A stretch of DNA of 64,000 nt from Candidatus Eiseniibacteriota bacterium (GCA_963707915.1 OY970178.1:3094103-3158102), one strand, 5' to 3'. Shown: positions 9,522-27,487, counted from the first letter of the stretch. Notes: generated by a model from the sequence alone, not told the origin. Numbers and translations: made by a program.

Positions 9522-11081
9522 CTACTTCAGGTGTAGGTTGTATCCGACGTTGATGCGCAGCACGTTCGCCGTGTAGTAGCGGTCCAGCAGGATGTAGTCG
9601 TCGTAGTTGTAGGCGTTGTACTTGAGCTCGAGGATGTACTCGTCCAGCAGCGTGTAGGCGCCCTCCAGGAACACGATCGACTTCTCGATGTCGAGGTCCC
9701 CGCCGATGTCCATGTAGGTCGCGCCGCCGGCGAGCCGCAGGCCCTTGACCCGCGCGAACTCGACCCGCCCCGTCACGAACTGGCTCTCGGTGTGGAAGCC
9801 GGCGGCGAGGTCCTTGTAGTCGTCGTCCGAGTAGCTGTAGTCGGCCGAGAGCGCTCCCCAGGCCGTGATCTCGTAACGGCCGAAGGCGTTCACGGCGTCG
9901 CCGTCGACGGTGACGTTCAGGTCGGGGAACTCGCGCTCGCGCCGCGAATAGCCGCCGCCCAGGGTGACGCCCTCGCGGGGCTGCACCTGGAGCTTCGCGC
10001 GGACCTGCGAGGCCTCGACGTCCTTGAGGAGGGTCAGCTCCTCCTGGTCCTTCTTGACGCGGCTCGCGTAGTCGACCTTGGCGTTCACGACCTTGCCGTA
10101 GCGGAATGCCGTCCCGACGCGCCAGTTGTGGTAGCTGGTGAGCGTTTGGTCGTCGTCGTTGGTCTCGTAGCCGTAGCCGCCGCTGAACTGGCCGTACCGA
10201 TAGAGCCAGGTCGCGTCGAAATCGTTCTGGAATCGGTCGGTCATCAGCCCGCTGGACGGGTCGTCGGTGCGGTTCGCATCGAAGCCGTAGCGGAACCGGA
10301 AGGCCTCGACCGGCTCGACCACCCCGGTGTACTGGAAGCTCGACATCGTGAAGTCGCGGTCGCGGTCGGAGTGCGAGCGGGTGCCGTAGGACGCGCGCAG
10401 CAGGTGGGTCCACTTGTCGTAGAACAGGCAGGGCGAGTAGAGCCGGGCCGACACCACCTGCCCGTTGCGGTCCGCCGCCGGGACGAGCTCGTCGCGGAAG
10501 GCCGACGCGCGCAGGCTGATCGCCCCGCCCCGCCGCCCCTTGTGAACGTCCGCCGCGATCTCGCCGGTCCTCAGCGCGTTGTCGTACCCGCTCCCCAGCA
10601 CGCTCAGCGTGCCGGACGGGTAGGGCAGGCGGTCGCCGTCGCGCGTCAGGACGCCGAAGCCTCCCGAGAGCCCCAGCCAGGCATTCGGCGTGAACTGGGC
10701 GTTCGCCCTCCAGTCCTTGCGTCCGGAGTTGACGAGGCCGCCCGGGGAGAAGATCTGCCGGTGCTGGTCGAAGGCCGAGGTGAGCTTGAAGGTGCCCGGC
10801 ACGCGGAAGACGAGGTCGCCCTGCCGCGAGTCCAGGTTGAGGTCGCGCAGGTCGAGCGAGAAATAGTGACCGCGATCGAGGGCGCCGCTCAGGCTGATCT
10901 GGGCGAGGGAGAACCCGTCGTAGATGTTGTAGGTCTCCTGGACGGCGGAGCGGTCGCCGGTCTGGTTCATGATGATGCCGCCCAGCTTCACGGTGCCGTC
11001 CAGCGTGCCGGCCCAGGCGGCGGTCGCGGCCAGCGTGACGGCGAGCGTGACGCATGTGGCCGTAATCTTGGTCGTTCGCAT
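9522..11081 (-). CDS. outer-membrane beta-barrel protein (porin-like partner of a porin-cytochrome conduit)
   Basis: Signal peptide MRTTKITATCVTLAVTLAATAAWA, then alternating amphipathic beta-strand pattern over 519 aa. The start lies 12 nt after the upstream cytochrome stop. Confidence 0.7.
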   Translation of the reverse strand: MRTTKITATCVTLAVTLAATAAWAGTLDGTVKLGGIIMNQTGDRSAVQETYNIYDGFSLAQISLSGALDRGHYFSLDLRDLNLDSRQGDLVFRVPGTFKLTSAFDQHRQIFSPGGLVNSGRKDWRANAQFTPNAWLGLSGGFGVLTRDGDRLPYPSGTLSVLGSGYDNALRTGEIAADVHKGRRGGAISLRASAFRDELVPAADRNGQVVSARLYSPCLFYDKWTHLLRASYGTRSHSDRDRDFTMSSFQYTGVVEPVEAFRFRYGFDANRTDDPSSGLMTDRFQNDFDATWLYRYGQFSGGYGYETNDDDQTLTSYHNWRVGTAFRYGKVVNAKVDYASRVKKDQEELTLLKDVEASQVRAKLQVQPREGVTLGGGYSRREREFPDLNVTVDGDAVNAFGRYEITAWGALSADYSYSDDDYKDLAAGFHTESQFVTGRVEFARVKGLRLAGGATYMDIGGDLDIEKSIVFLEGAYTLLDEYILELKYNAYNYDDYILLDRYYTANVLRINVGYNLHLK

Positions 11082-11093
11082 TCGTGCCCCGTC

Positions 11094-12041
11094 CTAGAAC
11101 TTGTGGTGGCAGCCGACGTTGAAGCAGCCTCGAAGCGACTCGCTCAGGAACAGGCGGCTGGTGTAGGAGCCGTGGATGTCCGTGTGGCAGTCATTGCAGG
11201 GCATGCCCGCCCATCTCGTCCCGTGCATCGGGTTCGAGTTGTGCCGCGGGACCGAGTGGCACTGCGTGCACAGCTGGAAGTGGGGCGCCTCGTAGGGCTG
11301 CTTGAGCATCCGCGGCAGGTTCGAGCCGTGGGGCTCGTGGCAGGTCACGCAGCCGCCCTCCTCCGTCGAGTAGTCGAGGGTCGCCGGGTGCTCGTAGGGG
11401 AACGGCCCCTCGAACTCGGCATGGCACTTCATGCAGACGTTCGTGCCGTTGGTCGCCAGCTGGCGGCGCGTGGCGTCGAGGGTCAGGTGACACTCGCTGC
11501 ACTTGACGATGCCGTCGTTCACCGGGTGCCGGTACGACCGGGAGAACTGCCCTTCGACGTCCTTGTGGCAGCCCAGGCACAGGCCGCTCTCGGCCTGCTT
11601 GAGCAGCGCCGGGTGCTTCGACGCGTGGACACTGTGGCACGTGCTGCAGTTGAGGTCGTTCGCCGCGTGGGCGTTCTTCTCGAGCATGTTCTGCTGGTGC
11701 GCGTTCTGGTGGCACCCCGAGCACACGCGCGCCTCGGCCGCCGCGCCGCTCTTCGAGGGGTTGGCCATCGGGTACTGGGCCGGGTCCTCGTCCCAGTGGC
11801 GGCTGTCGCCGGCATGGCAGTCCGTGCAGGCGACGCGCGCCGTCGGACCGTCCAGCCCGCCGGCCGGCATCCGGTGCCCGGTGGTGGCGAGGGTCAGGTC
11901 CTGGCCGGTGTGGCAGGCGAGGCACGCCTGGCTGACGCGGGGCTTGCCCTGCGCCGCGGGAGCGCCATTCGCCACGGCGAACGACGCGACCAGCACGACG
12001 CAGGCGATCAGCATCGAGGACGCGGATCGGCATGAAGTCAT
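11094..12041 (-). CDS. decaheme c-type cytochrome (periplasmic)
   Basis: Ten CxxCH motifs plus one CX4CH, and a signal peptide MTSCRSASSMLIACVVLVASFAVANG. Start chosen at the ATG whose complement is at 12039-12041; the annotated ORF extends to 12119 and 12014 is an alternative start. Confidence 0.75.
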   Translation of the reverse strand: MTSCRSASSMLIACVVLVASFAVANGAPAAQGKPRVSQACLACHTGQDLTLATTGHRMPAGGLDGPTARVACTDCHAGDSRHWDEDPAQYPMANPSKSGAAAEARVCSGCHQNAHQQNMLEKNAHAANDLNCSTCHSVHASKHPALLKQAESGLCLGCHKDVEGQFSRSYRHPVNDGIVKCSECHLTLDATRRQLATNGTNVCMKCHAEFEGPFPYEHPATLDYSTEEGGCVTCHEPHGSNLPRMLKQPYEAPHFQLCTQCHSVPRHNSNPMHGTRWAGMPCNDCHTDIHGSYTSRLFLSESLRGCFNVGCHHKF

Positions 12042-12485: not shown

Positions 12486-13532
12486 TCAGCTGCCCGTGGT
12501 GTCGGGCGGCGTCGTGTCCTGCGGCAGGGCGAGCACCTGGAGCCGGCCGAGCGCGCGCTCGGTGATGGCGACGAGCCCCCGGCCGTCGGTCACGAACGAG
12601 GTCGGGTAGGAGACCTCGCCGGGAGCCGTGCCCTCGCCCGTGGCCAGGGTGAGGAAGCCGCCGGCGTGGTCGAAGACCTGCACGCTCTGGCGGATCTCGT
12701 CGCACACCCAGATGCGGCCGTCCCGCGTGCCCAGCACCCCCGACGGCAGCGAGATGTTGCCCGGCCCCATCTCGTGCGTCGCGAAGCCGCGCAGGTAGGC
12801 GCCCTCGCCGGTGAACACCTGCACGCCGAGGTCCGTGCGCGCGCAGGTCACCGCCAGCGTGCTGTCCGGCATGACGGCCAGCGCGGTCACGCTGTGCAGG
12901 CGGCCCGGGCCGCTCCCGGGCTCGCCCCAGGAGCCGGCGCGGGAGTAGTCGGCGGCGAAGCGGTGGATCCGGGAGCCCTCTCCGGAACTGGCCACGTAGA
13001 TGGTGCCGTCGGGGCCGACGGCGAGGGCGATCGGCCGCTCGCCGGGAAGGTCCAGGCGCCGCAGCGGGCGGCCGCGACGGTCGAGGACGTCCACGTACGA
13101 CGCCGAGTTGTCCGCCACGAGCAGGCGCCCCGCGCGGTCGAAGGCCAGCGCGCAGGGCTCGCCGTCCACCAGCCCGCCGTCGGGACCGGCGACCCGGTGG
13201 ACGAACCAGGTGAGGGCGCGCCCGGTCTTCGAGAAGACCTCGATCCGGTGGGCGCCGGTGTTGGCGACGTAGATCGCCCCGTCGAGCGGATCGAACGCCG
13301 CCCCGCGCGGCCGGCTCAGGTTGGTGCCGTCCGCGTAACCCCAGATGACCAGCCTAGGGGTGAGCAGGCGCGGGGCCGCGGCGACCGCGGCCAGCGCGCA
13401 CGCGAGCAGCGCGGCCGCCAGCCCCGGGGCGAAGACGTGGCGCCGGACCCGTGCGCTGCGGAGCACCGCGCCCGCTCGGAGGCCGGGCTTCGCCCGGGCC
13501 CCCGGCTTCTCCTCGAGCGTCGCACGCGTCAC
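12486..13532 (-). CDS. NHL-repeat beta-propeller protein, secreted
   Basis: NHL-like repeats (IYVANTGAHRIEVF, IYVASSGEGSRIHRF, RIWVCDEIRQSVQVF). The ORF has no ATG upstream, so a GTG start at 13532 was chosen before the hydrophobic segment RRHVFAPGLAAALLACALAAVAAA. Start is uncertain. Confidence 0.55.
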   Translation of the reverse strand: MTRATLEEKPGARAKPGLRAGAVLRSARVRRHVFAPGLAAALLACALAAVAAAPRLLTPRLVIWGYADGTNLSRPRGAAFDPLDGAIYVANTGAHRIEVFSKTGRALTWFVHRVAGPDGGLVDGEPCALAFDRAGRLLVADNSASYVDVLDRRGRPLRRLDLPGERPIALAVGPDGTIYVASSGEGSRIHRFAADYSRAGSWGEPGSGPGRLHSVTALAVMPDSTLAVTCARTDLGVQVFTGEGAYLRGFATHEMGPGNISLPSGVLGTRDGRIWVCDEIRQSVQVFDHAGGFLTLATGEGTAPGEVSYPTSFVTDGRGLVAITERALGRLQVLALPQDTTPPDTTGS

Positions 13533-13896
13533 GGGGCACGCACCTTTCTGCGGTCGGGCTGGCCCGGGCTCGCCGCCGGGGCGAGGCGGCACGGGGATCG
13601 AGTCCCTTCGGGTCCGCCCATCGGCGCAGACACTACGGTCAGCCTCGCCCGCTGGCAACGCACGCCCCGCGGCGCCACCCGCGGCCGGGCGTTGACGCGC
13701 CTCGACCCCGGCCCCTATGTTGCCGCCGGCCGCGCGGCGGCCCGCAGGGTGCCGGCCCGGGCGGCCGCACGGAGACCACGCCATGACCAGGAACGGGGCG
13801 GTCCATGACCCGCAGGGCGGCAATCCGAGGGGAGCTCGGGACGTGGCCATCGCCGAGCGCGAGCCGGTCCGGCGCGGCGGCGGGCGGGATCACCTG

Positions 13897-15492
13897 ATGC
13901 CTCGCCGGGCGTCCGTGCTGGTCGCGCTCCTGGCGCTCGCGGTCTACCTGCCCCTCTGCCCGCCGGTGTCGGGGGTCGGGGACGGGAGCGAGTTCACCCT
14001 GGTGCTCGCCACGAACGGGGTCGCCCACCCCACCGGCTACCCCCTGTACGTCCTGCTGGGGCACCTGTTCTGCGTGCTCCTGCACGCGCTGGGCGTGTCC
14101 TGGCCGCTGGCTGCCAACGCCTGGAGCGCGGTCGGGGCCGCGGTGGCCATCGGCTTCCTGCACGCGCTCGGAACGGAGCTCGTCCGGCTCGCCACGCCGG
14201 GCCTGGCGGGGACCGCCCGCTTCGTCGCGGCGCTCGTGCCGGCGGCCCTGATCGCGTTCCAGCCCATCCTGCTGGGAGTGGCGACGTCGGCCGAGGTGAA
14301 CAGCTGGAGCCTGGCCTGGGTCTGTGCGGCGGCCTGGGCCTTCCTGCGGCTGTCGGCCGCGGTGGCGCGCGACGGGGGCCCCGAGCCCTCGCCCGGCCGT
14401 GCGGCCGCCCTCTGGGGGCTGGTCTGCGGCCTCGGGTTGGCGCACCACCTCACCTCCGTGGTGGTGGCGCTGCCGCTCTCGGCGGGCCTGGTCGTGCTGC
14501 TCGCCCGGCGGCGGCGTCTTGGGCCCGGTCTGCTGTTCCGGGCCGCCGCGGCGGCGCTGGTCCCGCTCGCGAGCTACGGGATCATCGCCTGGCGCGCCTG
14601 GCACCCGGCCCGGGTGCAGTGGCCGGCGCTGGTCCCGGGAGCGGCCTCGGTGCTCGAGCACATCAGCGGAGCGCAGTACCGCCACTTCCTCGGCTACTTC
14701 GACCCGGCCGCCGACCACCGCGCGTTGCTGGCGCGCGCGGGCTATCCATTCCTCGTCCCGGGGTTGGCGCTGCTCCTGCTCGGTGTCCTGCGCGAGCGGC
14801 GGCCGGAGCGGCGGGTGGCGTGGGCGGCGCTCCTGGCCGCCGCGCTGTCGTCGGCCCTCTTCGCCTTCCGCTACGGGGTTCCCGACCCGGCGCCGTACTT
14901 CCTGCCGGCGATGGCGCTGGGCGCGGCCGCGGCCGCGCCCACGGTGGCGAGCCTGGCGGGCGGGGCCGGGCGCGAGCGGGCGCTTCGCCTGGGCGTGATG
15001 GGTCTGGCCGCGCTCGCCCTGGTCGTCCCCTGGATCCGCGGCGGGCTGGCGGAGCGCCGCGGACTGATCGAGAACGAGGCCATGCTCCGCTCGATGTGGT
15101 CCGCCGTGCCGTCGGACACGGCCATCGTCCTGTGGCCCGACGACCGCTTCATCCACCTGGTCGAGTACCAGATCCTGCGCGGCGAGAAGCCCGCGCTGTG
15201 GATCGCCACGCCGGACATGCTGCTGGAGGCCGCCACGCGCGCCGAGCTGCGGGGGCGCTTCGGGACCGACCCGCTCGAGGGGGTGCGCGTTCCCACGGTT
15301 CGCCCCGGCTTGCCGGACGAGGCGGCGACCATCCAGCGGTCGCTCGCCGCCATCGTCAGGAACCTGAACGCCCGCACGCGCGTCCCGGTGATCTGGTTCG
15401 ACCCGGGCGTGCCCGAGGTGCGGCAGTTGCGCAAGCCCTGGGAGCCGGTGGAAGGCTCCGGCGCGCGTCCCGCCACGCTCCTGTCGCCGTAG
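13897..15492 (+). CDS. DUF2723 / TMEM260-like polytopic membrane protein (GT-C-like glycosyltransferase fold)
   Basis: Multi-pass membrane protein with a DGSEF motif near the N-terminus and a soluble C-terminal domain. Alternative start at 13783 (MTRNG). Confidence 0.55.
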   Translation: MPRRASVLVALLALAVYLPLCPPVSGVGDGSEFTLVLATNGVAHPTGYPLYVLLGHLFCVLLHALGVSWPLAANAWSAVGAAVAIGFLHALGTELVRLATPGLAGTARFVAALVPAALIAFQPILLGVATSAEVNSWSLAWVCAAAWAFLRLSAAVARDGGPEPSPGRAAALWGLVCGLGLAHHLTSVVVALPLSAGLVVLLARRRRLGPGLLFRAAAAALVPLASYGIIAWRAWHPARVQWPALVPGAASVLEHISGAQYRHFLGYFDPAADHRALLARAGYPFLVPGLALLLLGVLRERRPERRVAWAALLAAALSSALFAFRYGVPDPAPYFLPAMALGAAAAAPTVASLAGGAGRERALRLGVMGLAALALVVPWIRGGLAERRGLIENEAMLRSMWSAVPSDTAIVLWPDDRFIHLVEYQILRGEKPALWIATPDMLLEAATRAELRGRFGTDPLEGVRVPTVRPGLPDEAATIQRSLAAIVRNLNARTRVPVIWFDPGVPEVRQLRKPWEPVEGSGARPATLLSP

Positions 15493-15555: not shown

Positions 15556-18500
15556 TCAGTCGCGCTTCGGCCCCATGGAGGGGTCGTGGCACTGGATGCA
15601 CAGCTCCCGGGTCGGCTCGTGCGTCAGCAGGGAAGGCTGGTCGCTCGAGTGGGGCAGGTGGCAGCCGACGCAGTCGAGCGGCTCGTTGGTGCGCGGGTCC
15701 ACGCCTCCCGAGACCTTGTGGAAGTGCTTGGACGTGTCCGAGTGGCACTGCCGGCACAGCGTGTCCACGTCCTCGGTGAGCAGCTTCTTGTGCTTCCCGC
15801 TGTGGGGATCGTGGCACGTCGCGCAGCCCTGCCCGAGCGCGGCGTGCACGTTCTTCCGGCGGAACGGGCGGGGATCGTGGCACTGGAAGCAGAGCTTCTC
15901 GCCCGCGCGCTTCAGCACGCCGGTCGCCATGCCCGCGTGCGCTCCGTGGCAGGAAAGGCAGGCCTCGCGCGACTGCAGCGGCGCGTGGACGACGGGCGCG
16001 GAGAGCCACGCTTTCTGCCCCTCGTGGCAGCGGAAGCACAGGTCGGGCACCGGCTGAGTCGTCGCCCCGGTCTTGCGCTCGCCATGACACTCGACGCACC
16101 TGCGCTGCGCGAAGGGCATGTGCGAGACGGGCTTGAGCATGCCGGGCCGGCCCGTCGCTCCGACGTGCGGATCGTGGCAGTCCACGCAGTTGGCCTTCGC
16201 GAGGGCGAAGCCCTGGTGCTTCGCCAGGAGCCCCTGCTTCTCGATCGAGTGGCAGGCGGTGCAGAGCGCGGCCCCCTGGCGCTTCGTCATGCCGGGCTCG
16301 TCGGTGCCGTGGCTCGCGTGGCAGGTCGAGCAGAGCCCCATGGCGACCGGCGCGTGGGGCTTGCCCTGCGCGATGCGGGTCTGCAGGTCCGCGTGGCAGG
16401 TGAAGCACAGCGCGCCGGTGCGCTGCTTCAGCAGCGCCGGGTTGGCGCTCTCGTGCGGCTCGTGGCAGGTCGCGCACTGGCCCGCGGCCGCGGGCGGGTG
16501 CCCGTGCTTGAGCCGGGCGTCGGCGACGGCCCCGGCATGGCACCGGACGCACAGCCGGATGGGCTGGGTGACCAGCAGCGCCGCGCGGTCGGAGGCGTGC
16601 GGCGTGTGGCAGGCGACGCAATCGCCCTTCGCGACCGGCGGATGCACGTGGCCGGCGGCCGCGCCCTGCGGTGTGGCCTTCTTCTTCGGGATCTGGTGGC
16701 ACGAGGCGCACAGCGTGGCCGCCGGGCGCGCCAGGTTCAGGGCCCCGGGCGCGCCGGTCTTCCCGTGGCACTTGGTGCACTCCTTCGACCCGAAGAACGG
16801 GTGTTCGCGGGCCGCCAGCAGGCCGGCCGACTTGGACGCGTGCGGGGTGTGGCACGAGAGGCAGTCGACCGCGGTCAGCGTGGCGCCGCCGTGTTTCCGG
16901 GTGAGGTCCGCGTCCTCCAGGTCGTGGCAGTCGCCGCACAGCGCGGGCACCTTCTTCGTCAGGGCGGGCGCCGCCACGCCGCCGTGGGGATCGTGGCAGG
17001 AGAGGCACTCGCCGCTCTCCACCGGGGGATGCACGGTGTCCCCTTCCTTGCCGATGCCGCCGTGGCACCGGGTGCACAGGGCGTTGGGCTCGTCGCGCAG
17101 CAGGGCCGCCCGCGACCCGCCGTGGGGCTCGTGGCAGGCCGCGCACTGCCCGGCCGCGGCCGGGGTGTGGGGTGCGGGGCCCTTGATCTTCGCGGCGATG
17201 TCGGCGTGGCACTTGGTGCAGAGGGTGGCCCCGCCGGTCGCGAGCAGGCGGTTGGTGAGCCCGCCGTGGGCGCCGTGGCACTCGAGGCACTGCCCGGCGG
17301 CTGCCGGCGCGTGCGGATGGGACGCCTTGGCCGCCATCACCTCCTGGCCGTGGCAGGGCGCGCAGATCTTCGCCGGCTCGCCGCGCAGCAGCTTGCCCTG
17401 GCCCGACTGGTGCGGGTCGTGGCAGGCGGTGCACTGGCCGGAGCGGAACGGCGGGTGCACCTCGAGGCCGACGAGCTTCTGCGCCAGGTCGGCGTGGCAG
17501 GTCCGGCAGAGCGCGCGCATGTCCTTGCGCAGGAGCCGCTCCTCGGCCGCCGAGTGGGGGGCGTGACAGCGCAGGCAGTCCTTCTTCGCGAACGGCGGGT
17601 GCGTCCCGGCGCTGTCGGCGCGGGCCCCGAGGTCCTTGTGGCAGTCGAGGCACATCGCGCCGTCGGCGGTCTTCAGGAGGTGCTCGCGGTCGGATCCGTG
17701 CGGCTGGTGGCAGCCGGCGCAGTCGCCGGCCGCGAACGCCTTGTGGACCACCGGCTGCTTCAGCGCTTCGGCGAGCTGGTCGTGGCACTGGCCGCAGAGT
17801 TCCAGCGGCTTCGACTTGAGCAGGCCCCGGGCGACCCCGCGGTGCGGGTCGTGGCAGGTGAGGCACTCGCCGCCCGCCGCCGGCGGGTGGGGCGTGGGTT
17901 TCTGGGACGCGGTCCGCACGTCGTCGTGGCAGGTGAAGCACAGCTCCGGCACCTCGGTGACGAGCTTCGCGCCCGCCTTGCCGTCCTCCATCGTGTGGCA
18001 GGCGTCGCAGCTGCCCTCGGCCGCGGGCGCGTGCGCGGTCTCGCGCCGGAGCGCGGTCTCGGTCGAGGCGTGCGGGTCGTGGCAGTCGAGGCAGGCCAGC
18101 CCGGCGACCGTGAGCTTCGCGTGCGCGGTGGCCGTGTCGGCGGGCTTGTGGCACGTCGCGCAGAGCTGGTCGGCCGGGCCGCGGAGCAGCCCGGCGTCCT
18201 TCGAACCGTGGGCGTCGTGGCACGCGTAGCAGTCGCCCCGGGCAAAGACCGCGTGCACGTGCGGCTTCTTCGCCTGGGCCGCGGCCTCCTCGTGACAGGG
18301 GAAGCAGGTGGCTTGCGGGCCCCCGGCGCGCAGCAGCCGCGGCTGGTCGGAGGCGTGCGGATCGTGGCAGGAGAGGCACTTGCCCTGTTCGTAGGCGGCG
18401 TGCGCGTGCTCGGGCTTCGCGGCCGTCTTCAGGGCGTCATGGCAGCCGAAGCACAGCTCCGGCGCCGGCTTCACCAGGATCAGCTTCTGCAGGAAGCCGT

Positions 18501-18717
18501 GGCTCTTGTGGCAGGCCGCGCAGTCCACCTTCGCGACCGGCGCGTGAACGAACTTCCTCGACCCGTAGTCCTGCTTCGCGTCCTTGTGGCAGTCGTAGCA
18601 GGGACGGCCCTTCGGCACCGGCTTCGCGGCGTCGACGTGTCCGGGCAGCAGCAGCGGGACGGCGCCGAGCAGTGCTGCCGCGAACAGCGCGCGCAGGAGA
18701 CGGGCGGGGCGGCTCAT
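15556..18717 (-). CDS. giant multiheme c-type cytochrome, 1053 aa, 42 CxxCH motifs in repeated c7-like units
   Basis: Signal peptide MSRPARLLRALFAAALLGAVPLLLPGHVDA. 42 CxxCH motifs counted by eye, spaced about 18-22 aa apart with intervening His ligands (…DPHAS…). Confidence 0.9.
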   Translation of the reverse strand: MSRPARLLRALFAAALLGAVPLLLPGHVDAAKPVPKGRPCYDCHKDAKQDYGSRKFVHAPVAKVDCAACHKSHGFLQKLILVKPAPELCFGCHDALKTAAKPEHAHAAYEQGKCLSCHDPHASDQPRLLRAGGPQATCFPCHEEAAAQAKKPHVHAVFARGDCYACHDAHGSKDAGLLRGPADQLCATCHKPADTATAHAKLTVAGLACLDCHDPHASTETALRRETAHAPAAEGSCDACHTMEDGKAGAKLVTEVPELCFTCHDDVRTASQKPTPHPPAAGGECLTCHDPHRGVARGLLKSKPLELCGQCHDQLAEALKQPVVHKAFAAGDCAGCHQPHGSDREHLLKTADGAMCLDCHKDLGARADSAGTHPPFAKKDCLRCHAPHSAAEERLLRKDMRALCRTCHADLAQKLVGLEVHPPFRSGQCTACHDPHQSGQGKLLRGEPAKICAPCHGQEVMAAKASHPHAPAAAGQCLECHGAHGGLTNRLLATGGATLCTKCHADIAAKIKGPAPHTPAAAGQCAACHEPHGGSRAALLRDEPNALCTRCHGGIGKEGDTVHPPVESGECLSCHDPHGGVAAPALTKKVPALCGDCHDLEDADLTRKHGGATLTAVDCLSCHTPHASKSAGLLAAREHPFFGSKECTKCHGKTGAPGALNLARPAATLCASCHQIPKKKATPQGAAAGHVHPPVAKGDCVACHTPHASDRAALLVTQPIRLCVRCHAGAVADARLKHGHPPAAAGQCATCHEPHESANPALLKQRTGALCFTCHADLQTRIAQGKPHAPVAMGLCSTCHASHGTDEPGMTKRQGAALCTACHSIEKQGLLAKHQGFALAKANCVDCHDPHVGATGRPGMLKPVSHMPFAQRRCVECHGERKTGATTQPVPDLCFRCHEGQKAWLSAPVVHAPLQSREACLSCHGAHAGMATGVLKRAGEKLCFQCHDPRPFRRKNVHAALGQGCATCHDPHSGKHKKLLTEDVDTLCRQCHSDTSKHFHKVSGGVDPRTNEPLDCVGCHLPHSSDQPSLLTHEPTRELCIQCHDPSMGPKRD

Positions 18718-19238
18718 CGCGCGGACACGGTGTCGTGGCCGGCCGGCCGCGTCGGGGGCGCGGTGGGCGGGCTCGCCGGGGCGACGGCCGACGTGTCGAC
18801 CATGATCGGCGCCCGCCCGGTGAACTCGACCTTGACCACCTGGAAGGCGAACATGGACTTGCGCGCGAAGTGGGGCGGCATCTTGAGCAGCGCCCAGGTC
18901 GTGTCCTGCGGCGCCTTCTTCTGGAAGACGATGATGCGGAAGGCGGGGTTGTCGGGCTGGTCGGACTTCGACATGATCTTGCGGGTGGTGAGGTCCATGG
19001 TGAAGTCGGGCACGTACTCGACCACGCGCGCCGAGAAGTCGGTGTCACCGAGGATGAAGTCCTGCTTCAGCTTCACCCGCTGCAGGTCGCGGAAGTCGTG
19101 GAAGACGCGATGCCGCACCAGCAGCGTCACGGCGTCCAGCCGCGCCCCGCCCGCGGCCGCCGGCGGCTTCACCTGCGCCTGGGACGGGAGGACCGCGACG
19201 AGTCCGATCAGGAGCCCGAGCCACCACGTGCGTCTCAT
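18714..19238 (-). CDS. small secreted/periplasmic hypothetical protein
   Basis: Start MRRTWWLGLLIGLVAVLPSQAQ with AAGGAAGGA upstream. Stop overlaps the giant cytochrome start by 4 nt. Confidence 0.55.
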   Translation of the reverse strand: MRRTWWLGLLIGLVAVLPSQAQVKPPAAAGGARLDAVTLLVRHRVFHDFRDLQRVKLKQDFILGDTDFSARVVEYVPDFTMDLTTRKIMSKSDQPDNPAFRIIVFQKKAPQDTTWALLKMPPHFARKSMFAFQVVKVEFTGRAPIMVDTSAVAPASPPTAPPTRPAGHDTVSAR

Positions 19239-19867
19239 CTGGATCCTTCCTTGCGGGGGCCCGGCGCGCGGCGCGCGCCCGCCACCCTGAAGTCGCCGAG
19301 CATGTCCTGGGCGAGCAGCGAGACCAGCCGTTCCGTGCTCATGACCCGTCCCCAGCCGAACAGCGTCTCGTGGTCCTCGCCGGAGCGGAAGTGCACACCG
19401 GCCCACAGGACCCGGCCGCTCGCGGCCTCGACCAGCCGCAGCGTGCCGCCCACGGCGGGCACGTCCAGGTCGCCGCTGCGCAACCGTCCGCTCTCGAGCA
19501 CGCTGCCCATCAGCAGGTAGGGGGCGCGCAGGGCCTCGCCCAGCTCGCGGACCTGCGCCGGCGTGAGCGAGCCGCCCGAACGGATGCCCAGCGAGTCCAT
19601 CGCCTCGTCCACCTGCCCGGGCTCGGCCATCTCGAGGGCGCCGCTGGCGACCAGCTGGGCGAAGAACACCTTGCTGAAGAGCGCGCCCTGCTCCTCGCGG
19701 CCCGCGAGGTTCTCGAACGGCACGAGCGCGGCGCGCGGGTGGTCCGCGGGCACGGTGCCTCCGGCGGAGCGACGCAGGGCCGGTGCGCTCCCGGCGCACA
19801 GCACCGCCAGGCCGGCGAGGACGGCGAGCCGCAGCCCGATCGCGATGCGCCCGTGACGTCGAGCCAT
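19235..19867 (-). CDS. lipoprotein with an LpoB/CsgG-like (TolB-N-like) fold
   Basis: Signal/lipobox region ...LAVLCAGSAP, then the motif AALVPFENLAGREEQG. Paralog of the next gene. 4-nt overlap with the downstream gene. Confidence 0.6.
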   Translation of the reverse strand: MARRHGRIAIGLRLAVLAGLAVLCAGSAPALRRSAGGTVPADHPRAALVPFENLAGREEQGALFSKVFFAQLVASGALEMAEPGQVDEAMDSLGIRSGGSLTPAQVRELGEALRAPYLLMGSVLESGRLRSGDLDVPAVGGTLRLVEAASGRVLWAGVHFRSGEDHETLFGWGRVMSTERLVSLLAQDMLGDFRVAGARRAPGPRKEGSR

Positions 19868-19869
19868 GG

Positions 19870-20460
19870 TCAGAACGCCCTCCCGCGCAGCCGGGCCACG
19901 AGCTCGTCGCAGGCGTCCTGCGTCAGCCGTCCCAGCGAGCGCGAACTCTGGCCGAGGACCGGGATGCGGCTCTTGCCGCGCTTCGCGATCGAGGACCGCC
20001 AGACCACGTTCCCGGTGTTGGCGTCCAGCAGCTCCGCGTCGAACGACAGGACCGGGATGTCGCCGTTCTCCGTGCGCTGCATGGTGTACTCGCTGACCGC
20101 GCCGCGCAGCACGCCGGTGGCTCCCAGCCGGAGGGCCACCTCCTTGAGCTTCTGCAGGTCATACGTCCCGTCCGTCTCCGGCATGACGTTGTCCTTCAGC
20201 AGGGCGGTGCGGAACTCCTCGGGCTGCACGATCTGGTAGCGGTCCGTCATGATCAGCGAGGTGATGAAGGCGCGCGTGACGCGCGGTCCGGCCAGCCCCT
20301 CGCTGCTCAGGTTGGTGAACGGCAGCACGGCGATCCTGGTGTAGAAGGCCATGTCCGCGTCGGGATTCAGGTAGACCCGGGAGACCGGGGCGCAGGAGAG
20401 CAGGAGCAGGCCCAGGGCGGCGGCCGCCATGCGTGCCAGAGGATGGTGCTTCCCGGCCAT
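19870..20460 (-). CDS. lipoprotein with an LpoB/CsgG-like fold (paralog of 19235..19867)
   Basis: Lipobox LLLSCAP, then RIAVLPFTNLSSEGLAG, a motif typical of the LpoB/CsgG/GNA1162 lipoprotein fold. Confidence 0.65.
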   Translation of the reverse strand: MAGKHHPLARMAAAALGLLLLSCAPVSRVYLNPDADMAFYTRIAVLPFTNLSSEGLAGPRVTRAFITSLIMTDRYQIVQPEEFRTALLKDNVMPETDGTYDLQKLKEVALRLGATGVLRGAVSEYTMQRTENGDIPVLSFDAELLDANTGNVVWRSSIAKRGKSRIPVLGQSSRSLGRLTQDACDELVARLRGRAF

Positions 20461-20461
20461 G

Positions 20462-22111
20462 CTACCTCCAGAGACTCTGGGACAAGGTCGCGCTCACCTG
20501 CCGGGCGCGGGTGGGAAGACCCGGGTCCGCCTGAGTGTAGCGAATCGTGGCGTGCAGGTCGCGGTTCAATGCCACGGCGAGCCAGGCGCCGTAGGCCTCA
20601 CGGCCGGCCGTGAGCGACGTGCCGGGGTCGCGCAGTTGCTGGTTCGCGCGGGTGTAGGTGCCGCTCGCCTGGACGGTGCGCGAGGGGGTCCACTGCACGC
20701 TGGCCTGCAGCGTCGAGCGGTCGGGCGCGTTGCGCACGAAGCCCCCGGCGCGGCCCCAGCTGCCGCTCGCCTGCAGCTTCTCCGAGGCCCGCCAGTCGAG
20801 GCTCGTCGTGTAGGTGGTCGAGGCCGGGCCGTCGCCCCGCAGCGTCGCGCCGGTGCGGTAGCGCCGCAGGTTCGCATTGAGGGTGACGGTGCGCAGCGGC
20901 ACCGCGCGCAGGCCGGCGGCGGTCTGCAGCGTCACCAGGGTCGCGGCCGGGCCGGTTTCGAGGCCCGCGCTGGGGCGGTCGGCCCTGGAGAGCGAGGCCT
21001 CGCCGAAGGCGTCGAACCCCTTCGAGAGCCGCATCCGCGTGTTCGAGCGGATGCTCTGGACCGGGCGGGCGCGGTCGCCGGGGAGCCAGTTCCACGACTG
21101 GTTCGCGCTCGCTCCCAACCTCCACCCGGGCCGGGCGTCGCCCTCGGCCGAGGCCGACGTGCTCAGGAAGCTCTCGGTCTCCTCGCTGCCCGCGACGTTG
21201 ACGCTGCGCACTCCGCCGCCGCCGGACAACTGCACCGCCTTCCAGGGCCGGTGGATGACGCTGAGTGAGCCGTCGTGATCGACCTCGGTCGTGGTGGCGA
21301 ACTGCGTGGTGCCCACGCTCCGGAAGCTGTAGGCGAGACTGGCAGAGGTCCGCTTGGAGATCGCCAGCCCCCCGTTCGCGGACGCGCTGTGCACGCGCGA
21401 GGTGGCGTCATGGGCCCCGTCGACCTGCCTGCGCGACTGGTTGTAGTCGTACTGGAGGACGGCATTCGCACGCCGGTTCTCGAGGCGCACGGTCGAGCCG
21501 GCGTTGACGTTCTCCTCGCTCCCGGTCCGCCGCCGCGCGCTGCGGTCCTCGTTGGCCAGGTCGCCGTAGCCCGCGTGGAGGTTCAGCCGCCCCAGGTCGT
21601 AGTTGGCCATCAGGCTGCGCCTCACGGCCGCTGTGCCCGGGAACGGGCCGCTCGCATCCTGGTTGCGACGGTTCCACGAGGCCGACAGCTGGGGAAGCCC
21701 GGCCCGCTGGAAGTAGCCCGTCAGGTTGGTCTCCTGCTGGCGGGTCGTGAGGTTGCGCGAATCGACGACCGTGATCGGCCGGTAGGAGCCGAACAGCCCG
21801 AACAGCGGATGGGCCAGGCGCAGGGAGCCCTGCGGGAGGATCTGGCGGTCGGGTCGTCCGATGGTGCGCTGGTCGGTGAACTGGAACCGGGACGAGAGCT
21901 CGTAGGCCTTGCGGAAGCGGCGGGAGTAGTCGAGTTGCACGGAGGTGAGCCACCATTCCACGTCGTTGGCCGGGTCCAGCAGGCTGAGCTTCGAGTATTG
22001 CACCTCGGCGACTCCCCGGATCTTCTGCTGGGCGTCAGCGGGCCCGGCGAGCAGAACGGCCGCCATCGATGCCGCCACCAGCCCCGCCCCCAGCGCTCTT
22101 CGCCGCATCAT
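20462..22111 (-). CDS. outer-membrane beta-barrel protein
   Basis: Start MMRRRALGAGLVAASMAAVLLAGPADA. 549 aa rich in alternating strands and in Ser/Thr/Asn/Gln/Tyr. Start overlaps the upstream cytochrome stop. Confidence 0.6.
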   Translation of the reverse strand: MMRRRALGAGLVAASMAAVLLAGPADAQQKIRGVAEVQYSKLSLLDPANDVEWWLTSVQLDYSRRFRKAYELSSRFQFTDQRTIGRPDRQILPQGSLRLAHPLFGLFGSYRPITVVDSRNLTTRQQETNLTGYFQRAGLPQLSASWNRRNQDASGPFPGTAAVRRSLMANYDLGRLNLHAGYGDLANEDRSARRRTGSEENVNAGSTVRLENRRANAVLQYDYNQSRRQVDGAHDATSRVHSASANGGLAISKRTSASLAYSFRSVGTTQFATTTEVDHDGSLSVIHRPWKAVQLSGGGGVRSVNVAGSEETESFLSTSASAEGDARPGWRLGASANQSWNWLPGDRARPVQSIRSNTRMRLSKGFDAFGEASLSRADRPSAGLETGPAATLVTLQTAAGLRAVPLRTVTLNANLRRYRTGATLRGDGPASTTYTTSLDWRASEKLQASGSWGRAGGFVRNAPDRSTLQASVQWTPSRTVQASGTYTRANQQLRDPGTSLTAGREAYGAWLAVALNRDLHATIRYTQADPGLPTRARQVSATLSQSLWR

Positions 22112-23511
22112 CGAGCATAGTTGATCGTGTACGACTCGGGATCGTGACACGTCGGCGAGCAGGTGCCGCCGCTGGCCGTCTCGGTGTAGGAGCCGATGCC
22201 CGGGTTGCGCCCCGTGGCGATGAGATGGCGCTGGTCGGGCGAGCCGTGCGTGACGTGGCAGGCGTAACAGGGGACGTGCTCCTCGCCGACGTGCTCGGCG
22301 TGGCCCTTGTCCACCCCGGGCTTGTTGAACCGCGAGAGGGCCCTCGTCGCCTCGGGCGCGCCCGGGTCCGCGTAGACTTCGGGGGTGTGGCAGGCGAAGC
22401 AGATCTCGCCGGTGCTCATCGTCCGCGGCTGGGGCGAGGCGGTGTAGGGCTGCGTCAGGATGTAGCGGTACGAGGAGCCGTGCGGCCCGCGCGTGGACCC
22501 GACGAAATCGCTGCCGTGGCAATCGCCGCAGCGCGTGAGGCTGGCGGCGCTCCAGCCGGGCGCGAACGCGCCGGCCGGGATCCCCGGGTTGCGGCCCGCG
22601 GCCTCGACCGGGTGGAACGACTCGTTCGCCGGGTTCAGGACCAGGGCCAGGTCGGTCTGCCCCGAGGGCTGGCTGGTCCAGGACGAATGGCACTTGAAGC
22701 AGAGCTGGTATTCCGCCACCGGCGCGCTCAGCGTATCGGAGCCGGCGGCGAACGTGAACGTGGGGGGCGTGCCCGCCGGGCCGTTCTGCACCAGCACCCG
22801 ACTCACGCCCAGGTTGGTGCGCGAGAGCCCGGGGGCGGCCGGCGTGGCGGGCCGGTCGGCGCCGGCCACGTGCGGGTTGTGGCAGTCGACGCACTCGGAG
22901 TGGCGCGCGTTCGCGGGCGAGACCCCGAAGTCGGCGGGATCGGATTCGGCCGGTCCCTTGTGGCGCCCGGAGTAGAGCCGCACCGGGTGCCGGTAGACCT
23001 TGGCGAGATCGGCGCCGATGTTGGTGGAAGCGGGCGCGCCGTCATGGCAGGTGAGGCAGAGAGTCTCCTCGCGCCCGATGGCGAGCGCCGGGATCAGCCC
23101 GCCGGCGTCCGACCAGCCGTGCGGGTCGTGGCAGTTGAGGCACTTGCCCTCCGCGCCCGGCTCGGTGCGTGGCGGGGGGGTGGGCCCCGGCCAGGCGGTC
23201 CCGGTGGCCGTGCCGTGAGAGGCGCCGGAGTACACCCAGGGCCCCGCGTAGCTGCCGGCCGTCCAGGGCTTGTCGTGGCAGCGGTCGCAAAGCGAGTTGT
23301 CGTCCGGGCCGAGCAGCGCGTGCCCGTAGACGACATCCCCCTGGCCGTGCACGGTGTGGCACTGGTCGCAGTCGCCCGCGTGCGCGCCCTGCGCCAGGAG
23401 CTTCTCGACGCCGGCGGGGGTGCGATAGGGATGCAGGGGCTGCGCTCCAGTCGCCAGCAGGCACACCAACGCCAGCCCCGCGAGGCTCGAGACGAGATCC
23501 CTCGGTCGCAT
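22108..23511 (-). CDS. multiheme c-type cytochrome (about 9 CxxCH plus 1 CX3CH)
   Basis: Start MRPRDLVSSLAGLALVCLLATGAQP, possibly a lipoprotein. Motifs CDQCH, CDRCH, CLNCH, CLTCH, CVDCH, CFKCH, CGDCH, CFACH, CYACH and CSPTCH. Confidence 0.8.
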   Translation of the reverse strand: MRPRDLVSSLAGLALVCLLATGAQPLHPYRTPAGVEKLLAQGAHAGDCDQCHTVHGQGDVVYGHALLGPDDNSLCDRCHDKPWTAGSYAGPWVYSGASHGTATGTAWPGPTPPPRTEPGAEGKCLNCHDPHGWSDAGGLIPALAIGREETLCLTCHDGAPASTNIGADLAKVYRHPVRLYSGRHKGPAESDPADFGVSPANARHSECVDCHNPHVAGADRPATPAAPGLSRTNLGVSRVLVQNGPAGTPPTFTFAAGSDTLSAPVAEYQLCFKCHSSWTSQPSGQTDLALVLNPANESFHPVEAAGRNPGIPAGAFAPGWSAASLTRCGDCHGSDFVGSTRGPHGSSYRYILTQPYTASPQPRTMSTGEICFACHTPEVYADPGAPEATRALSRFNKPGVDKGHAEHVGEEHVPCYACHVTHGSPDQRHLIATGRNPGIGSYTETASGGTCSPTCHDPESYTINYAR

Positions 23512-23644: not shown

Positions 23645-24718
23645 TCAGGGGATGATCGCGACCGGGTTGCCGGCCGGGAAGCTGCCCTGGGTGTGGCACT
23701 GACGGCACAGGTCGCGGTACTCGCCGCCGTCACCCTGCTCGGTGATGTCGGTCGGGGTTGCGGGCGTGTTGGGACCGGTCGTGGTGTTGTCCACGAACCA
23801 GATCAGCCCGAAGCCGTTCTGGTTGCCGTGCGACTTGTGGCAGGTGAAGCACGACGGGGTCGCGGTGGCGGTCGAACCGTCCCACTGGCCCAGCCCGTCC
23901 ATCAGCTTGACCTTGTGCGTGTGCAGGTTCAGCTGGGTGCGGTTGCTGGTGCTGAGGTCCACGCCGGCCGTCGGGTGACGGACCACGCCGTCGACGGTCT
24001 CGATGTTGGCGTCCGCCGGTGAGCCGTGGAAGGTCGTGTGGCAGGCCTGGCACCATGCGCCGTAGGCGCTCGTGGTCTGGCTCGGCTCCTGGTAGTTGAC
24101 GTTGTTCCAGCCGTAGCCGCGCGCGGCCGCCTCGTAGACGTCCTTCGTGTTGGTGGGCGTCCCGCCGATCTCGTAGGAGACGAACCGGTTGTAGAAGGCG
24201 TTGGTGCTGCGCGTGCTGCTCTTCAGGTTGCGGTAGTTCGCCGCGCCGTGCGCGGAGTGGCAGTCCGCACAACCCAGGCCGCTCGCGCTCACGGGCGAAG
24301 TCGTGCCGCTGAAGCCCGGCGGCGTGGCGGTCGACCACAGCGTGTGGCCGTCACCGACGGAGTAGCCGGCGTCGTTCGTGTAGCCGTGGCCCGACTCGAC
24401 GTTCAGCGCACCGGCGAGGCGGCCGTTCAGCGGGGCCGCGCTCGTGGTGCCGAGCACGTCCGGAACGTCCGTGCGACCGTCGTGGCACGAGAGGCACACC
24501 GCGTTGACCGACGACTGGCGCAGCAGCTTCGCGAACGGAGCGCCGGCGCCCGGAGGATTCAGCTCGCCGGTCTCGGGGTAGGTGTGCGACTGCTGGCCGT
24601 GCATCACGTGGCAATCGCTGCAGACCAGCAACTGGCCGACGTGATAGTCGCCCGACAACGCGACGGTCGTGAGACCGGCGAGGGCCAGGACGACGAGGGA
24701 GAGCAACAGGCGCTTCAT
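23645..24718 (-). CDS. omcS-like: OmcS-family hexaheme c-type cytochrome (nanowire-type extracellular cytochrome)
   Basis: Signal peptide MKRLLLSLVVLALAGLTTVALS and six CxxCH motifs. Motif-by-motif resemblance to Geobacter OmcS as recalled from memory: CSDCHVMHG vs CEGCHTMHN; CLSCHDG vs CLNCHQH; WCQACHTTFHGSP vs WCANCHTDIHNS; CFTCHKSHG vs CLSCHRAHA; C-terminal LCRQCH vs LCNKCH. Long Ser/Thr/Gly-rich inter-heme spacers. Confidence 0.75.
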   Translation of the reverse strand: MKRLLLSLVVLALAGLTTVALSGDYHVGQLLVCSDCHVMHGQQSHTYPETGELNPPGAGAPFAKLLRQSSVNAVCLSCHDGRTDVPDVLGTTSAAPLNGRLAGALNVESGHGYTNDAGYSVGDGHTLWSTATPPGFSGTTSPVSASGLGCADCHSAHGAANYRNLKSSTRSTNAFYNRFVSYEIGGTPTNTKDVYEAAARGYGWNNVNYQEPSQTTSAYGAWCQACHTTFHGSPADANIETVDGVVRHPTAGVDLSTSNRTQLNLHTHKVKLMDGLGQWDGSTATATPSCFTCHKSHGNQNGFGLIWFVDNTTTGPNTPATPTDITEQGDGGEYRDLCRQCHTQGSFPAGNPVAIIP

Positions 24719-25276: not shown

Positions 25277-27487
25277 GTGAATCTTGGTGACCTGCTGCTG
25301 AAGCTCGCATTCCTGCTCGCGGTCCCGGCCGCCTTCCTCTTCTTCCAGGACGTCCGGGGCCGCCGCGGGCCCGCAGCGGCTGAATGGATGTTCGGGCTCC
25401 ACTCGGCCGCCATCCTCGGCGCGGTCGTCACGCTCTGGGCGCTCTTCCTCGGCCACCGCTTCGAGTACGCCTACATCGCCGAGTACAGTTCCCGCGCCCT
25501 CTCGCCCGCGCTCACCTTTGCGGCCTCCTGGGCCGGGCAGGAGGGCAGCATCCTGCTCTGGGCACTGCTCATGGCGCTGGTGGGCGTCGCCCTGATGCGG
25601 CAGCCGGGGCCGCTCTCCCGGCCGGCGATGTTCTTCGTCGCGCTCGCCCAGCTCGGCCTGCTGGTGCTGCTCCTGGTGCGCAGTCCGTTCCGCGTGAGCC
25701 ACGTCACCCCGGCGGACGGCCAGGGCCTGAACCCGCTGCTCGAGGATCCCTGGATGGTCGTCCATCCGCCGGTGCTCTTCGTGGGGTACGCGGCGATGGT
25801 GGCCCCCTTCGCCCTGGCGGGCGCCGCGCTGGTGCTCGGTCTGTGGCGCGAATGGAACCGCGCCGTTTGGCCCTGGGTGCTGTTCGCGGTGCTCTCGCTC
25901 GGAACCGGCATCGCCCTCGGCGGCATCTGGGCCTACAAGGTGCTGGGCTGGGGCGGCTACTGGGGCTGGGACCCGGTCGAGAACGCCTCGCTCGTGCCCT
26001 GGCTCGTCGCGGTCGCGCTCCTGCACGGCCTGTTCATCCAGAAGACCACCGGTGGGCTGGTGCGCAGCAACCTGCTCATGGCGTTCCTGGGATGGCTCAC
26101 CGTGCTCGGCGGGACCTACCTGACCCGCAGCGGCGTGCTGCAGGACTTCTCGGTCCACTCCTTCGCCGACTCGGGCCTCAACGTGCCGCTGATCGTCAAC
26201 CTGGCCGGCGCCCTGCTGATCGCGGCCGTGCTGCTGGCCTGGCGCTGGCGCGCGATCGAGTCGAGGCCCACCCGCTGGACCAGCGTCTCGCGCGAGGCCG
26301 CGCTGTGGGTCGGGCTCGTCACGGTGCTGGTCTTCGCGGCCATGGTGACCTTCGGCACGATCGCTCCGCTGCTCACCTCGCTGGCCGGCCGGCCCGCCAG
26401 CGTGCGCCCGTCGTTCTACCAGTCGATGAGCGTGCCGCTCGGCGTCCTGCTGGTGCTGGTCATGGCGGTCGCGCCGGCGCTGCGCTGGTCGCGGCAGGTG
26501 GGGTTCGGCTGGCTCACGGCGCTCGCCCCGGGGTTCCTGTGCGCGCTGCTGGCGTTCGGGGGCGCGCTCCTCACGGGCGTGCGGGACGGGGCGCACCTGG
26601 CGCTGCTCGCCACGACCGGGTTCGCCCTCGGGATCAACGCGTGGATGACCGTGAAGCTGTTCCGCCGCGGCTGGAGCTACGGCGCGGGCTACCTCGGGCA
26701 CGCGGGGCTCGCCATCATGATCCTGGGGATGGTGATGTCCACGGCGCTGGGACGCACCGAGCGCCTGACGCTGCGGACGGGCGAATCGGGGCAGGCCCTC
26801 GGCTACACGATCACCTACCGCGGAGACCATTTCGATCCGCGCGGTGGCCACCAGCTCGACGTGCTGGTGAGCCGCAAGGGCTGGAGCTTCGAGGCCCGCC
26901 CGCAGCTGCTGAAGATGCCGCAGGGCGAGGGCAGCATGCACAAGCCGGCCATCAGCGGCCGGCGCGAGCTCTACCTGTCGCCAGTGGACGTGCAGCGGCT
27001 GGAGAGCGACGCGGACCGGATCGTGTGGCTGCCGCAGGGCCAGGCGGTGCCGGCGCTGGGACTGACCTGGACCTTCGTGGGGTTCCGGATGGAGTCGCAC
27101 GAGGCCATGCAGGTCCTGGCCGACATCGATGTCCGCCGGAGCGGGCCGGCGGTGCGGATCTCCCCCGGGATGCGCGCCGACGCGCAGGGGACCCGGGCGC
27201 TGCCGGTCGAGGTGGCCGGCCTGGGGCAGGTCACGGTCGAACGGATCGACGCGGATCGCAAGCGGGTGGGTGTGCTGCTCCCGGGTGCCGGGGCGGCGAG
27301 CCAGGCGGTGCTGGAGTTCAGCACCAAGCCGCTGGTCAACCTGGTCTGGGTGGGCGCGCTCATCACCCTGCTCGGGGCCGCGCTGGCCGGCCTGCGCCGT
27401 GCCATCGAGGTCGTGCCTGGCGCGCGACGCCGGCGGGCCGCCGCCGCTCCGGCCGCTCCAGCCGTCCCGACCGGCGGGGCCCGGTAA
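25277..27487 (+). CDS. ccmF: cytochrome c-type biogenesis protein CcmF/NrfE (heme lyase)
   Basis: GTG start with GAGGGAAG upstream. Polytopic membrane protein with the Trp-rich WGGYWGWDPVEN motif typical of CcmF. Confidence 0.85.
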   Translation: MNLGDLLLKLAFLLAVPAAFLFFQDVRGRRGPAAAEWMFGLHSAAILGAVVTLWALFLGHRFEYAYIAEYSSRALSPALTFAASWAGQEGSILLWALLMALVGVALMRQPGPLSRPAMFFVALAQLGLLVLLLVRSPFRVSHVTPADGQGLNPLLEDPWMVVHPPVLFVGYAAMVAPFALAGAALVLGLWREWNRAVWPWVLFAVLSLGTGIALGGIWAYKVLGWGGYWGWDPVENASLVPWLVAVALLHGLFIQKTTGGLVRSNLLMAFLGWLTVLGGTYLTRSGVLQDFSVHSFADSGLNVPLIVNLAGALLIAAVLLAWRWRAIESRPTRWTSVSREAALWVGLVTVLVFAAMVTFGTIAPLLTSLAGRPASVRPSFYQSMSVPLGVLLVLVMAVAPALRWSRQVGFGWLTALAPGFLCALLAFGGALLTGVRDGAHLALLATTGFALGINAWMTVKLFRRGWSYGAGYLGHAGLAIMILGMVMSTALGRTERLTLRTGESGQALGYTITYRGDHFDPRGGHQLDVLVSRKGWSFEARPQLLKMPQGEGSMHKPAISGRRELYLSPVDVQRLESDADRIVWLPQGQAVPALGLTWTFVGFRMESHEAMQVLADIDVRRSGPAVRISPGMRADAQGTRALPVEVAGLGQVTVERIDADRKRVGVLLPGAGAASQAVLEFSTKPLVNLVWVGALITLLGAALAGLRRAIEVVPGARRRRAAAAPAAPAVPTGGAR

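Follow-up and report, generated by a model that had tools for sequence, protein, structure and literature searches.

We analysed 64,000 nt of one DNA strand from a Candidatus Eiseniibacteriota bacterium (GCA_963707915.1 OY970178.1:3094103-3158102), hereafter the window, in which the genes of an outer-membrane beta-barrel and two lipoproteins are embedded among multihaem cytochrome genes. As judged by sequence comparison, the barrel (20462..22111, minus strand, 549 amino acids, aa) and the lipoproteins lip196 (19870..20460, minus strand, 196 aa) and lip210 (19235..19867, minus strand, 210 aa) are distant homologues of OscE, OscF and OscG of Geobacter sulfurreducens. The three genes probably represent the Eisenbacteria-type counterparts of the outer-membrane part of the osc cluster, in a compact version found in an uncultured lineage. 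In 2025 Shen et al. reportedly tied OscE, OscF and OscG, which belong to the omcS-companion cluster of G. sulfurreducens, to secretion of OmcS nanowires. On balance, homology together with analogy favours a lipoprotein collar resembling that of PelBC, set on a wide barrel, which would export or anchor an OmcS-like filament. For this organism the proposed function is supported only by homology and synteny, and we hold it to be probable. The cluster extends a published system rather than opening a new category. An earlier interpretation of the window from its nucleotides alone (the sequence-only reading) was largely right but rediscovers that published system.

Seven minus-strand open reading frames are arranged head to tail in the order cytA-cytB-barrel-lip196-lip210-peri174-cyt1053. 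The cytochromes cytA (23645..24718, 357 aa, six CxxCH motifs) and cytB (22108..23511, 467 aa, nine CxxCH motifs) lie upstream of the barrel. Downstream of the lipoproteins are peri174 (18714..19238), a secreted 174-aa protein without a known family, and cyt1053 (15556..18717), a periplasmic cytochrome of 1053 aa that has 42 CxxCH motifs and takes the position of OscI. The barrel stop codon is separated from the lip196 ATG by 1 nt and the lip196 stop codon from the lip210 ATG by 2 nt. ATGA overlaps were found at the cytB/barrel junction, where the cytB stop overlaps the barrel start, and at the lip210/peri174 and peri174/cyt1053 junctions. The window is 72% GC overall (65-79% by 2-kb windows). 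GC content at third codon positions was 0.93-0.97 over all operon genes, and the values of 0.93-0.95 for barrel, lip196 and lip210 indicate that these three frames are truly coding. The sequence-only reading had placed two lipoproteins and a 549-aa barrel between cytochrome genes and had described the lipoproteins as translationally coupled to the barrel and to a downstream periplasmic protein. The coordinates, the coupling and the flanking cytochromes all agree with the gene calls. Of the two lipoprotein lengths it gave, 196 aa was correct and 209 aa was not, the called gene being 210 aa.

Loci were retrieved with an approximate OmcS sequence, which is 94% identical to the real OmcS and was used for retrieval only. 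The Geobacter loci contained omcS, omcT, a 1017-aa protein, an OmcS-like 437-aa protein and a 492-aa YncE-like propeller, together with a 718-725-aa protein without a Pfam match, a 199-aa LpoB/GNA1162-like lipoprotein and a 392-aa protein. We infer that the last three are OscE, OscF and OscG (GSU2499-2497), because oscC is GSU2501 and oscI is GSU2495 in PMC13194489, the numbering is consecutive and the genes follow this order in the Geobacter locus L003. The same paper states the proposal that OscE, OscF and OscG serve in OmcS secretion, OscH in folding and OscD in morphology.

Both lipoproteins were compared directly with OscF and OscG of Geobacter. Using BLASTP, lip196 aligned with OscF over its full length (30% identity, 175 aa, E 5e-20), and hhalign aligned the lip196 family with OscF at a probability of 99.3% (E 4.6e-20). 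lip210, a single-domain protein in the OscG position, matched residues 220-364 of OscG (30% identity, E 3e-14) and, more weakly, residues 39-165, and the lip196 family matched OscG 219-340 at 92.9%. From these alignments OscG looks like a tandem of two PelC-like domains. The match of lip210 to OscF (E 5e-16) was about as good as that to OscG, with which lip210 shares position and fold but not domain architecture. A module contains two PelC-like domains in the Eisenbacteria-type arrangement (lip196 and lip210; window 19235-20460), three in Geobacter (OscF and tandem OscG; L003:20055-21233) and four in Nitrospirae (two OscF-like genes and a tandem OscG-like gene; L028:4620-8152).

The homology between the barrel and OscE became clear only after intermediate sequences had been obtained. 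Against the single Geobacter OscE sequence the barrel profile gave a weak match (28% probability). A search of 1.84 billion representative sequences yielded clear OscE homologues of 682-773 aa, including the bridging sequences P0404 and P0410. The barrel family (A1) then aligned with the OscE family (A3) over 519 columns at 99.4% probability (hhalign, E 3.2e-21), and the hidden Markov model matches between A1 and A3 were reciprocal. In members of the OscE family a domain of about 190 aa is inserted (L003:17284-19461, roughly residues 250-440), with the motifs W..Y.S.DN..W and YFKVVN...V.EIEA.G. This insert has no Pfam match and is missing from the Eisenbacteria-type barrel.

lip196 and lip210 are related to each other beyond chance, as the sequence-only reading had proposed: they share 26% identity over 158 aa (BLASTP, E 5e-12), and the lip196 family profile (A2, built from 51 sequences) aligned with lip210 at 97% (hhalign, E 7e-11). 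The common motif RIAVLPFxNL(S/A)G that it had assigned to both was found in lip196, in which the N-proximal sequence is RIAVLPFTNLSSEG (RIAVLPFTNLS, containing VLPFTN). In lip210 the motif holds only approximately, the counterpart RAALVPFENLAGRE reading LVPFEN and not VLPF (listed with the gene as RAALVPFENLAG). The lipobox of lip196 is canonical (LLS/C, the slash marking the cleavage site). Orthologues of lip196 in two genomes (L025:6244-6813 and L026:5672-6181) have no lipobox cysteine (...LAGTAAAGPR...), and in these genomes the protein may be without a lipid anchor.

The fold of the lipoproteins was examined with profiles and with a predicted structure. lip196 scored 26.1 bits against Pfam LpoB, over the gathering score of 22.3, and lip210 scored 18.2 bits, just under it. 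Searched against the PDB, the lip196 family profile matched PelC (5T11/5T10/5T0Z/9H80) at E 6e-7 to 1e-4, GNA1162 at 0.28 and LpoB at 0.34. The AlphaFold2 model of lip196 had a predicted local distance difference test score (pLDDT) of 86.9, and its top 15 Foldseek matches were all PelC chains, with TM-scores by target (TMt) of 0.75-0.85. The folds were listed in the order PelC, GNA1162, LpoB, CsgG and FlgT. The LpoB/CsgG/GNA1162-type fold suggested earlier is thus borne out by the Pfam LpoB match and the Foldseek results. Within that fold family the predicted structure and the sequence profile agree that the nearest characterised relative of lip196 is PelC, not CsgG or LpoB.

The barrel was modelled with AlphaFold2 using 35 homologues (pLDDT 87.8), and the model contains 28 beta-strands after a Sec signal peptide (...PADA/QQ) and no plug domain. 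Textbook geometry gives a 28-strand barrel a width of about 5 nm, measured from C-alpha to C-alpha. The mature barrel is basic, with an isoelectric point of 10.9, and cytA is acidic, with one of 5.9. No family match to the barrel was found in Pfam or NCBIfam, and its profile matched just 166 of the 1.84 billion representatives. The best Foldseek match in the PDB was MtrB (6R2Q_B, E 1.5e-11, TM-score by query, TMq, 0.50), followed by TonB-dependent receptors and LptD.

To survey conservation, 185,579 species genomes were scanned with the lip196 family using family-specific patterns, and 25 loci were recovered, 22 of them Eisenbacteria-type. The order cytA-cytB-barrel-lip196-lip210-peri174-cyt1053 was kept in all 22 as far as the contigs reach, with cytB directly upstream of the barrel in every one. 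Multihaem cytochromes were present in 25 of the 25 loci. As the patterns were family-specific, the scan demonstrates tight linkage within the lip196 family and does not bear on PelC-fold lipoproteins generally; PelC itself is not accompanied by cytochromes. One locus (L027) is rearranged and still has OmcS-like genes, an NHL gene and a giant cytochrome. In the two remaining loci, from Nitrospirae, OscD and OscE are followed in order by a pair of OscF-like genes, an OscG-like gene with tandem domains, a SurA-like peptidyl-prolyl isomerase (PPIase), genes for multihaem cytochromes and one that is OmcS-like; these loci link the Eisenbacteria-type and Geobacter architectures. Three loci with the Eisenbacteria-type synteny (L015, L019 and L020) come from metagenome-assembled genomes labelled Saccharimonadales, Bacteroidota and Acidobacteriota, and an error of binning or labelling is a likelier explanation for this than transfer.

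cytA is collinear with OmcS, OmcT and OscC at all six CxxCH motifs, and the CxxCHxxH sequence after haem 1 is kept. In the OmcS filament the second histidine of this sequence ligates a haem of the neighbouring subunit. The link between cytA and OmcS was established via orthologues and a family alignment: in tblastn, OmcS matched cytA orthologues over nearly full length at E-values down to 1e-12, and the match between the window cytA and the Geobacter omcS locus had an E-value of 9e-6. On this evidence cytA is an OmcS-family hexahaem cytochrome and probably serves as cargo or filament subunit. A phmmer search of the PDB with cytB returned nothing useful. cyt1053 contains 22 doubled-CXXCH stretches (Pfam, 693 bits) and shares 32% identity (E 4e-95) with the multihaem gene found after OscH in the Nitrospirae locus L028. 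In every related locus that has cyt1053 its length hardly varies (about 1050 aa), at identities of 47-66%, which suggests selection on the length, for instance to suit a fixed distance.

Where the small protein peri174 stands, Nitrospirae have the PPIase OscH, as does Geobacter, judging from its gene numbering. It is conserved in the 22 loci and in the rearranged L027 (L027:1553-2044), always directly upstream of the roughly 1050-aa, 42-haem cytochrome. No match to it was found in Pfam, NCBIfam or the PDB, even with a profile of 17 sequences, and a PPIase match was not found by Pfam in the operon. Invariant residues of the family include R44, D78, N97-P98-A99 and P122-H123-F124.

The components could work together as follows. 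The cytochromes would be exported by Sec and matured by the Ccm system, of which CcmF is encoded next door. The basic, wide barrel of about 5 nm would sit in the outer membrane, and both lipoproteins would be anchored in its inner leaflet. As PelC does on PelB with twelve subunits, lip196 and lip210 may, by analogy, form a mixed collar on the periplasmic rim of the barrel, and this collar would dock or gate the cargo. Acidic OmcS-like subunits would then pass through the barrel and polymerise outside through cross-subunit histidine-haem ligation. The base of the filament possibly stays in the barrel, where the 42-haem periplasmic cytochrome could reach it. The sequence-only reading had likewise suggested a channel in the outer membrane through which cytochromes could be exported or the wire inserted. 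This agrees with the model put forward for the homologues OscE, OscF and OscG in PMC13194489, so the idea matches a published one, with a speculative mechanism, and is not new. The sequence-only reading had offered it as an untested idea; export has reportedly been tested genetically in Geobacter, with its mechanism still speculative according to a review (PMC12307469).

Several points weigh against the collar-and-filament reading. The assembly of a ring is pure analogy. A barrel of 28 strands would be far wider than the 16-strand PelB, and PelC-like stoichiometry may for this reason not transfer. MtrB, the best structural match to the barrel, sheathes a cytochrome rather than secreting one. 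The lipobox of lip210 in this genome is atypical (AVL/C), its orthologues having mostly AG/C or LG/C at this position. The likeness of cytA to OmcS is weak, and phmmer found nothing in the PDB with cytA as query. Searches of the window by tblastn with OscH of Nitrospirae, both OscD sequences and Geobacter OscB also found nothing. In the review cited above, outer-membrane secretion and anchoring of cytochrome nanowires are still called speculative (PMC12307469). A stronger form of the proposal is a good deal more doubtful: the seven genes might make up a minimal, self-contained nanowire machine, in which a hetero-oligomeric collar of lip196 and lip210 both exports and permanently anchors the filament, the 42-haem cytochrome wires its base, peri174 replaces the prolyl-isomerase chaperone, and two, three or four PelC-like domains tile the same ring. 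If that were true, one continuous haem path would run from the inner membrane to the outside of the cell through a periplasm-spanning 42-haem cytochrome.

The structural match to MtrB raises the main alternative, that of an electron conduit of the MtrAB or porin-cytochrome type, in which the barrel permanently sheathes cytB or one end of the 42-haem cytochrome and conveys electrons instead of protein through the outer membrane, and the lipoproteins merely stabilise or assemble it. The overlap of the barrel gene with the stop codon of the nine-haem cytochrome, its position upstream of the 42-haem gene and the lack of a predicted plug domain also fit such a conduit. However, the MtrB likeness is structural only, and a TM-score of 0.5 reflects mostly generic big-barrel geometry, with TonB-dependent receptors and LptD close behind. 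Membership of the MtrB/PioB family was rejected: the barrel, a homologue of OscE, had no MtrB/PioB match in NCBIfam and none in Pfam, and cytB, at 37.7 bits against a cutoff of 192, is not a DmsE/MtrA-family decahaem cytochrome. A DmsE-like decahaem cytochrome and a barrel-like protein lie 3.5 kb downstream and could themselves be a conventional conduit. Conduit and export roles are not mutually exclusive, but the OscE homology and this downstream pair argue against a conduit as the sole role, and we regard that alternative as unlikely. An arrangement like that of LptDE, with one or both lipoproteins inside the 28-strand lumen as plug or assembly factor, would suit a barrel that has no plug of its own and a tight translational coupling that implies fixed stoichiometry, and LptD (26 strands; 9I92_A, TMq 0.44) was among the structural matches to the barrel. 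It is nevertheless improbable, given that the best match to lip196 is the ring-forming PelC, that LptE is missing from its top 50 matches and that variation between two, three and four PelC-like domains per module fits an oligomeric collar better.

Two further explanations concern the lipoproteins. PelC is their closest solved relative, and the window encodes a group-1 glycosyltransferase and a TMEM260-like O-mannosyltransferase, as might be expected of a Pel-like exporter in which PelC-like lipoproteins on a barrel move an exopolysaccharide unrelated to cytochromes. This candidate was rejected, and we give it scarcely any credence. The neighbouring genes are all cytochromes, with synteny to cytochromes in every locus; equivalents of pelA, pelD, pelE, pelF and pelG are all missing; and the barrel has no tetratricopeptide repeat (TPR) domain or PelB-like match, with 28 strands instead of 16 and a basic character as against the acidic PelB lumen. 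It would also be highly improbable for the lipoproteins to act alone, as a CsgG-like pore or an LpoB-like cell-wall regulator, with an incidental linkage to cytochromes. The Pfam LpoB match, the lower places of CsgG and LpoB in the fold list and the annotation of orthologues by the Joint Genome Institute as TolB-like, CsgG or PelC speak for that explanation. Against this, orthology to LpoB was rejected at 18.9 and 16.3 bits with the NCBIfam equivalog TIGR02722 (cutoff 110.55), no curli or penicillin-binding protein genes lie nearby, and the operon is strictly conserved with its cytochromes. The analogy drawn by the sequence-only reading with CsgG, a lipoprotein that itself forms the pore, proved to be the weaker one, and a CsgG-type pore was rejected. 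The lipoproteins gave no match to Pfam CsgG (PF03783), CsgG chains in the lip196 Foldseek list had TMt of about 0.3-0.5 (0.28-0.48), and the long hairpin of lip196 at residues 116-146 (GVLRGAVSEYTMQRTENGDIPVLSFDAELLD) is charged and not membrane-like. With low CsgG TM-scores, a charged hairpin and a separate 28-strand barrel, a PelC-type collar on the barrel fits better than a CsgG-type pore.

Further genes surround the operon. CcmF, for cytochrome c maturation (25277..27487, plus strand; Pfam Cytochrom_C_asm and CcmF_C), is divergent from it, and CcmF adjoins the operon in nine related loci, often divergently. An NHL-repeat beta-propeller (12486..13466, minus strand; Pfam NHL and SGL) lies 2 kb downstream of the operon, its GTG start at 13466 being our choice. 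In most related loci the NHL propeller precedes cytA, so that it has moved in the window. The window protein is 47% identical in tblastn to the NHL protein of L001, which in turn matched the gene immediately preceding omcS in Geobacter (L003:7415-8329) at E 5e-17. Between the operon and the NHL gene is a TMEM260-like protein O-mannosyltransferase (13717..15492, plus strand; Pfam, 62.6 bits), and the Geobacter omcS locus likewise has a PMT_2-family glycosyltransferase nearby (L003:1077-2693); these enzymes might conceivably bear on glycosylation of the cytochromes. The DmsE/MtrA-family-like decahaem cytochrome (11094..12041, minus strand, 315 aa) aligned with TIGR03508 over its full length at 169 bits, just under the cutoff of 192. 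Directly following it is the gene of a 519-aa, secreted, beta-barrel-like protein (9522..11081, minus strand), which has no family match and was not matched by the OscE or barrel profiles. From their sequences, the pair at 9522-12041 is a candidate for a conventional porin-cytochrome pair beside the osc-like operon.

The passage of cytochrome nanowires across the outer membrane and their attachment to it are acknowledged to be an open question (PMC12307469). The present cluster places putative machinery for this in a lineage of Eisenbacteria type that is uncultured and in which none of the seven proteins has an annotation, and a PelBC-like collar on the barrel offers a concrete structural analogy for the lipoprotein components. 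Being compact, with seven coupled genes, a barrel of reduced length and lipoproteins of one domain each, this version should be easier to model, express heterologously or image than the Geobacter cluster, which has more than 12 genes.

Among known systems, CsgG, LpoB, GNA1162/DUF799 and ring lipoproteins of the FlgT/FlgO type share with lip196 and lip210 the alpha/beta core fold and an LPF-type first strand. Their matches are far weaker than those of PelC and their partner genes are missing here; the transmembrane hairpins of CsgG are not evident in the lipoproteins, nor is the long linker of LpoB present. MtrCAB (MtrB, 6R2Q) likewise has a very large barrel that lacks a plug and is encoded among multihaem cytochrome genes, and MtrB is the top structural match. 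It differs in that the barrel described here has no membership of its sequence family and has OscE as its homologue, and in that MtrAB is without PelC-like lipoproteins. PelBC (5T11, 5T0Z, 9H80) has a periplasmic ring of twelve PelC lipoproteins, which sits on the PelB barrel (PMC12141448). lip196 resembles PelC in fold (TMt 0.75-0.85) and in sequence (E 6e-7), and both are lipoproteins encoded beside an outer-membrane barrel. Here, however, the cargo context is cytochromes and not Pel, there are two paralogues instead of one PelC, the barrel is unrelated to PelB, with 28 strands, a basic charge and no TPR domain, and a ring is suggested by analogy only. The osc cluster of G. sulfurreducens is similar in the order barrel-lipoprotein-lipoprotein, in the homology of all three proteins and in its linked genes, which encode a hexahaem cytochrome of the OmcS family, an NHL protein and a giant multihaem cytochrome of the periplasm. 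The differences are a barrel of 549 aa without the insert of about 190 aa, compared with 718-725 aa for OscE; an OscG equivalent with one PelC-like domain, compared with two in the 392-aa Geobacter OscG; a 174-aa protein in place of the PPIase OscH; one OmcS-like gene, compared with three in Geobacter; a giant cytochrome with 42 haem motifs; and a host of Candidatus Eisenbacteria type rather than of the phylum Desulfuromonadota.

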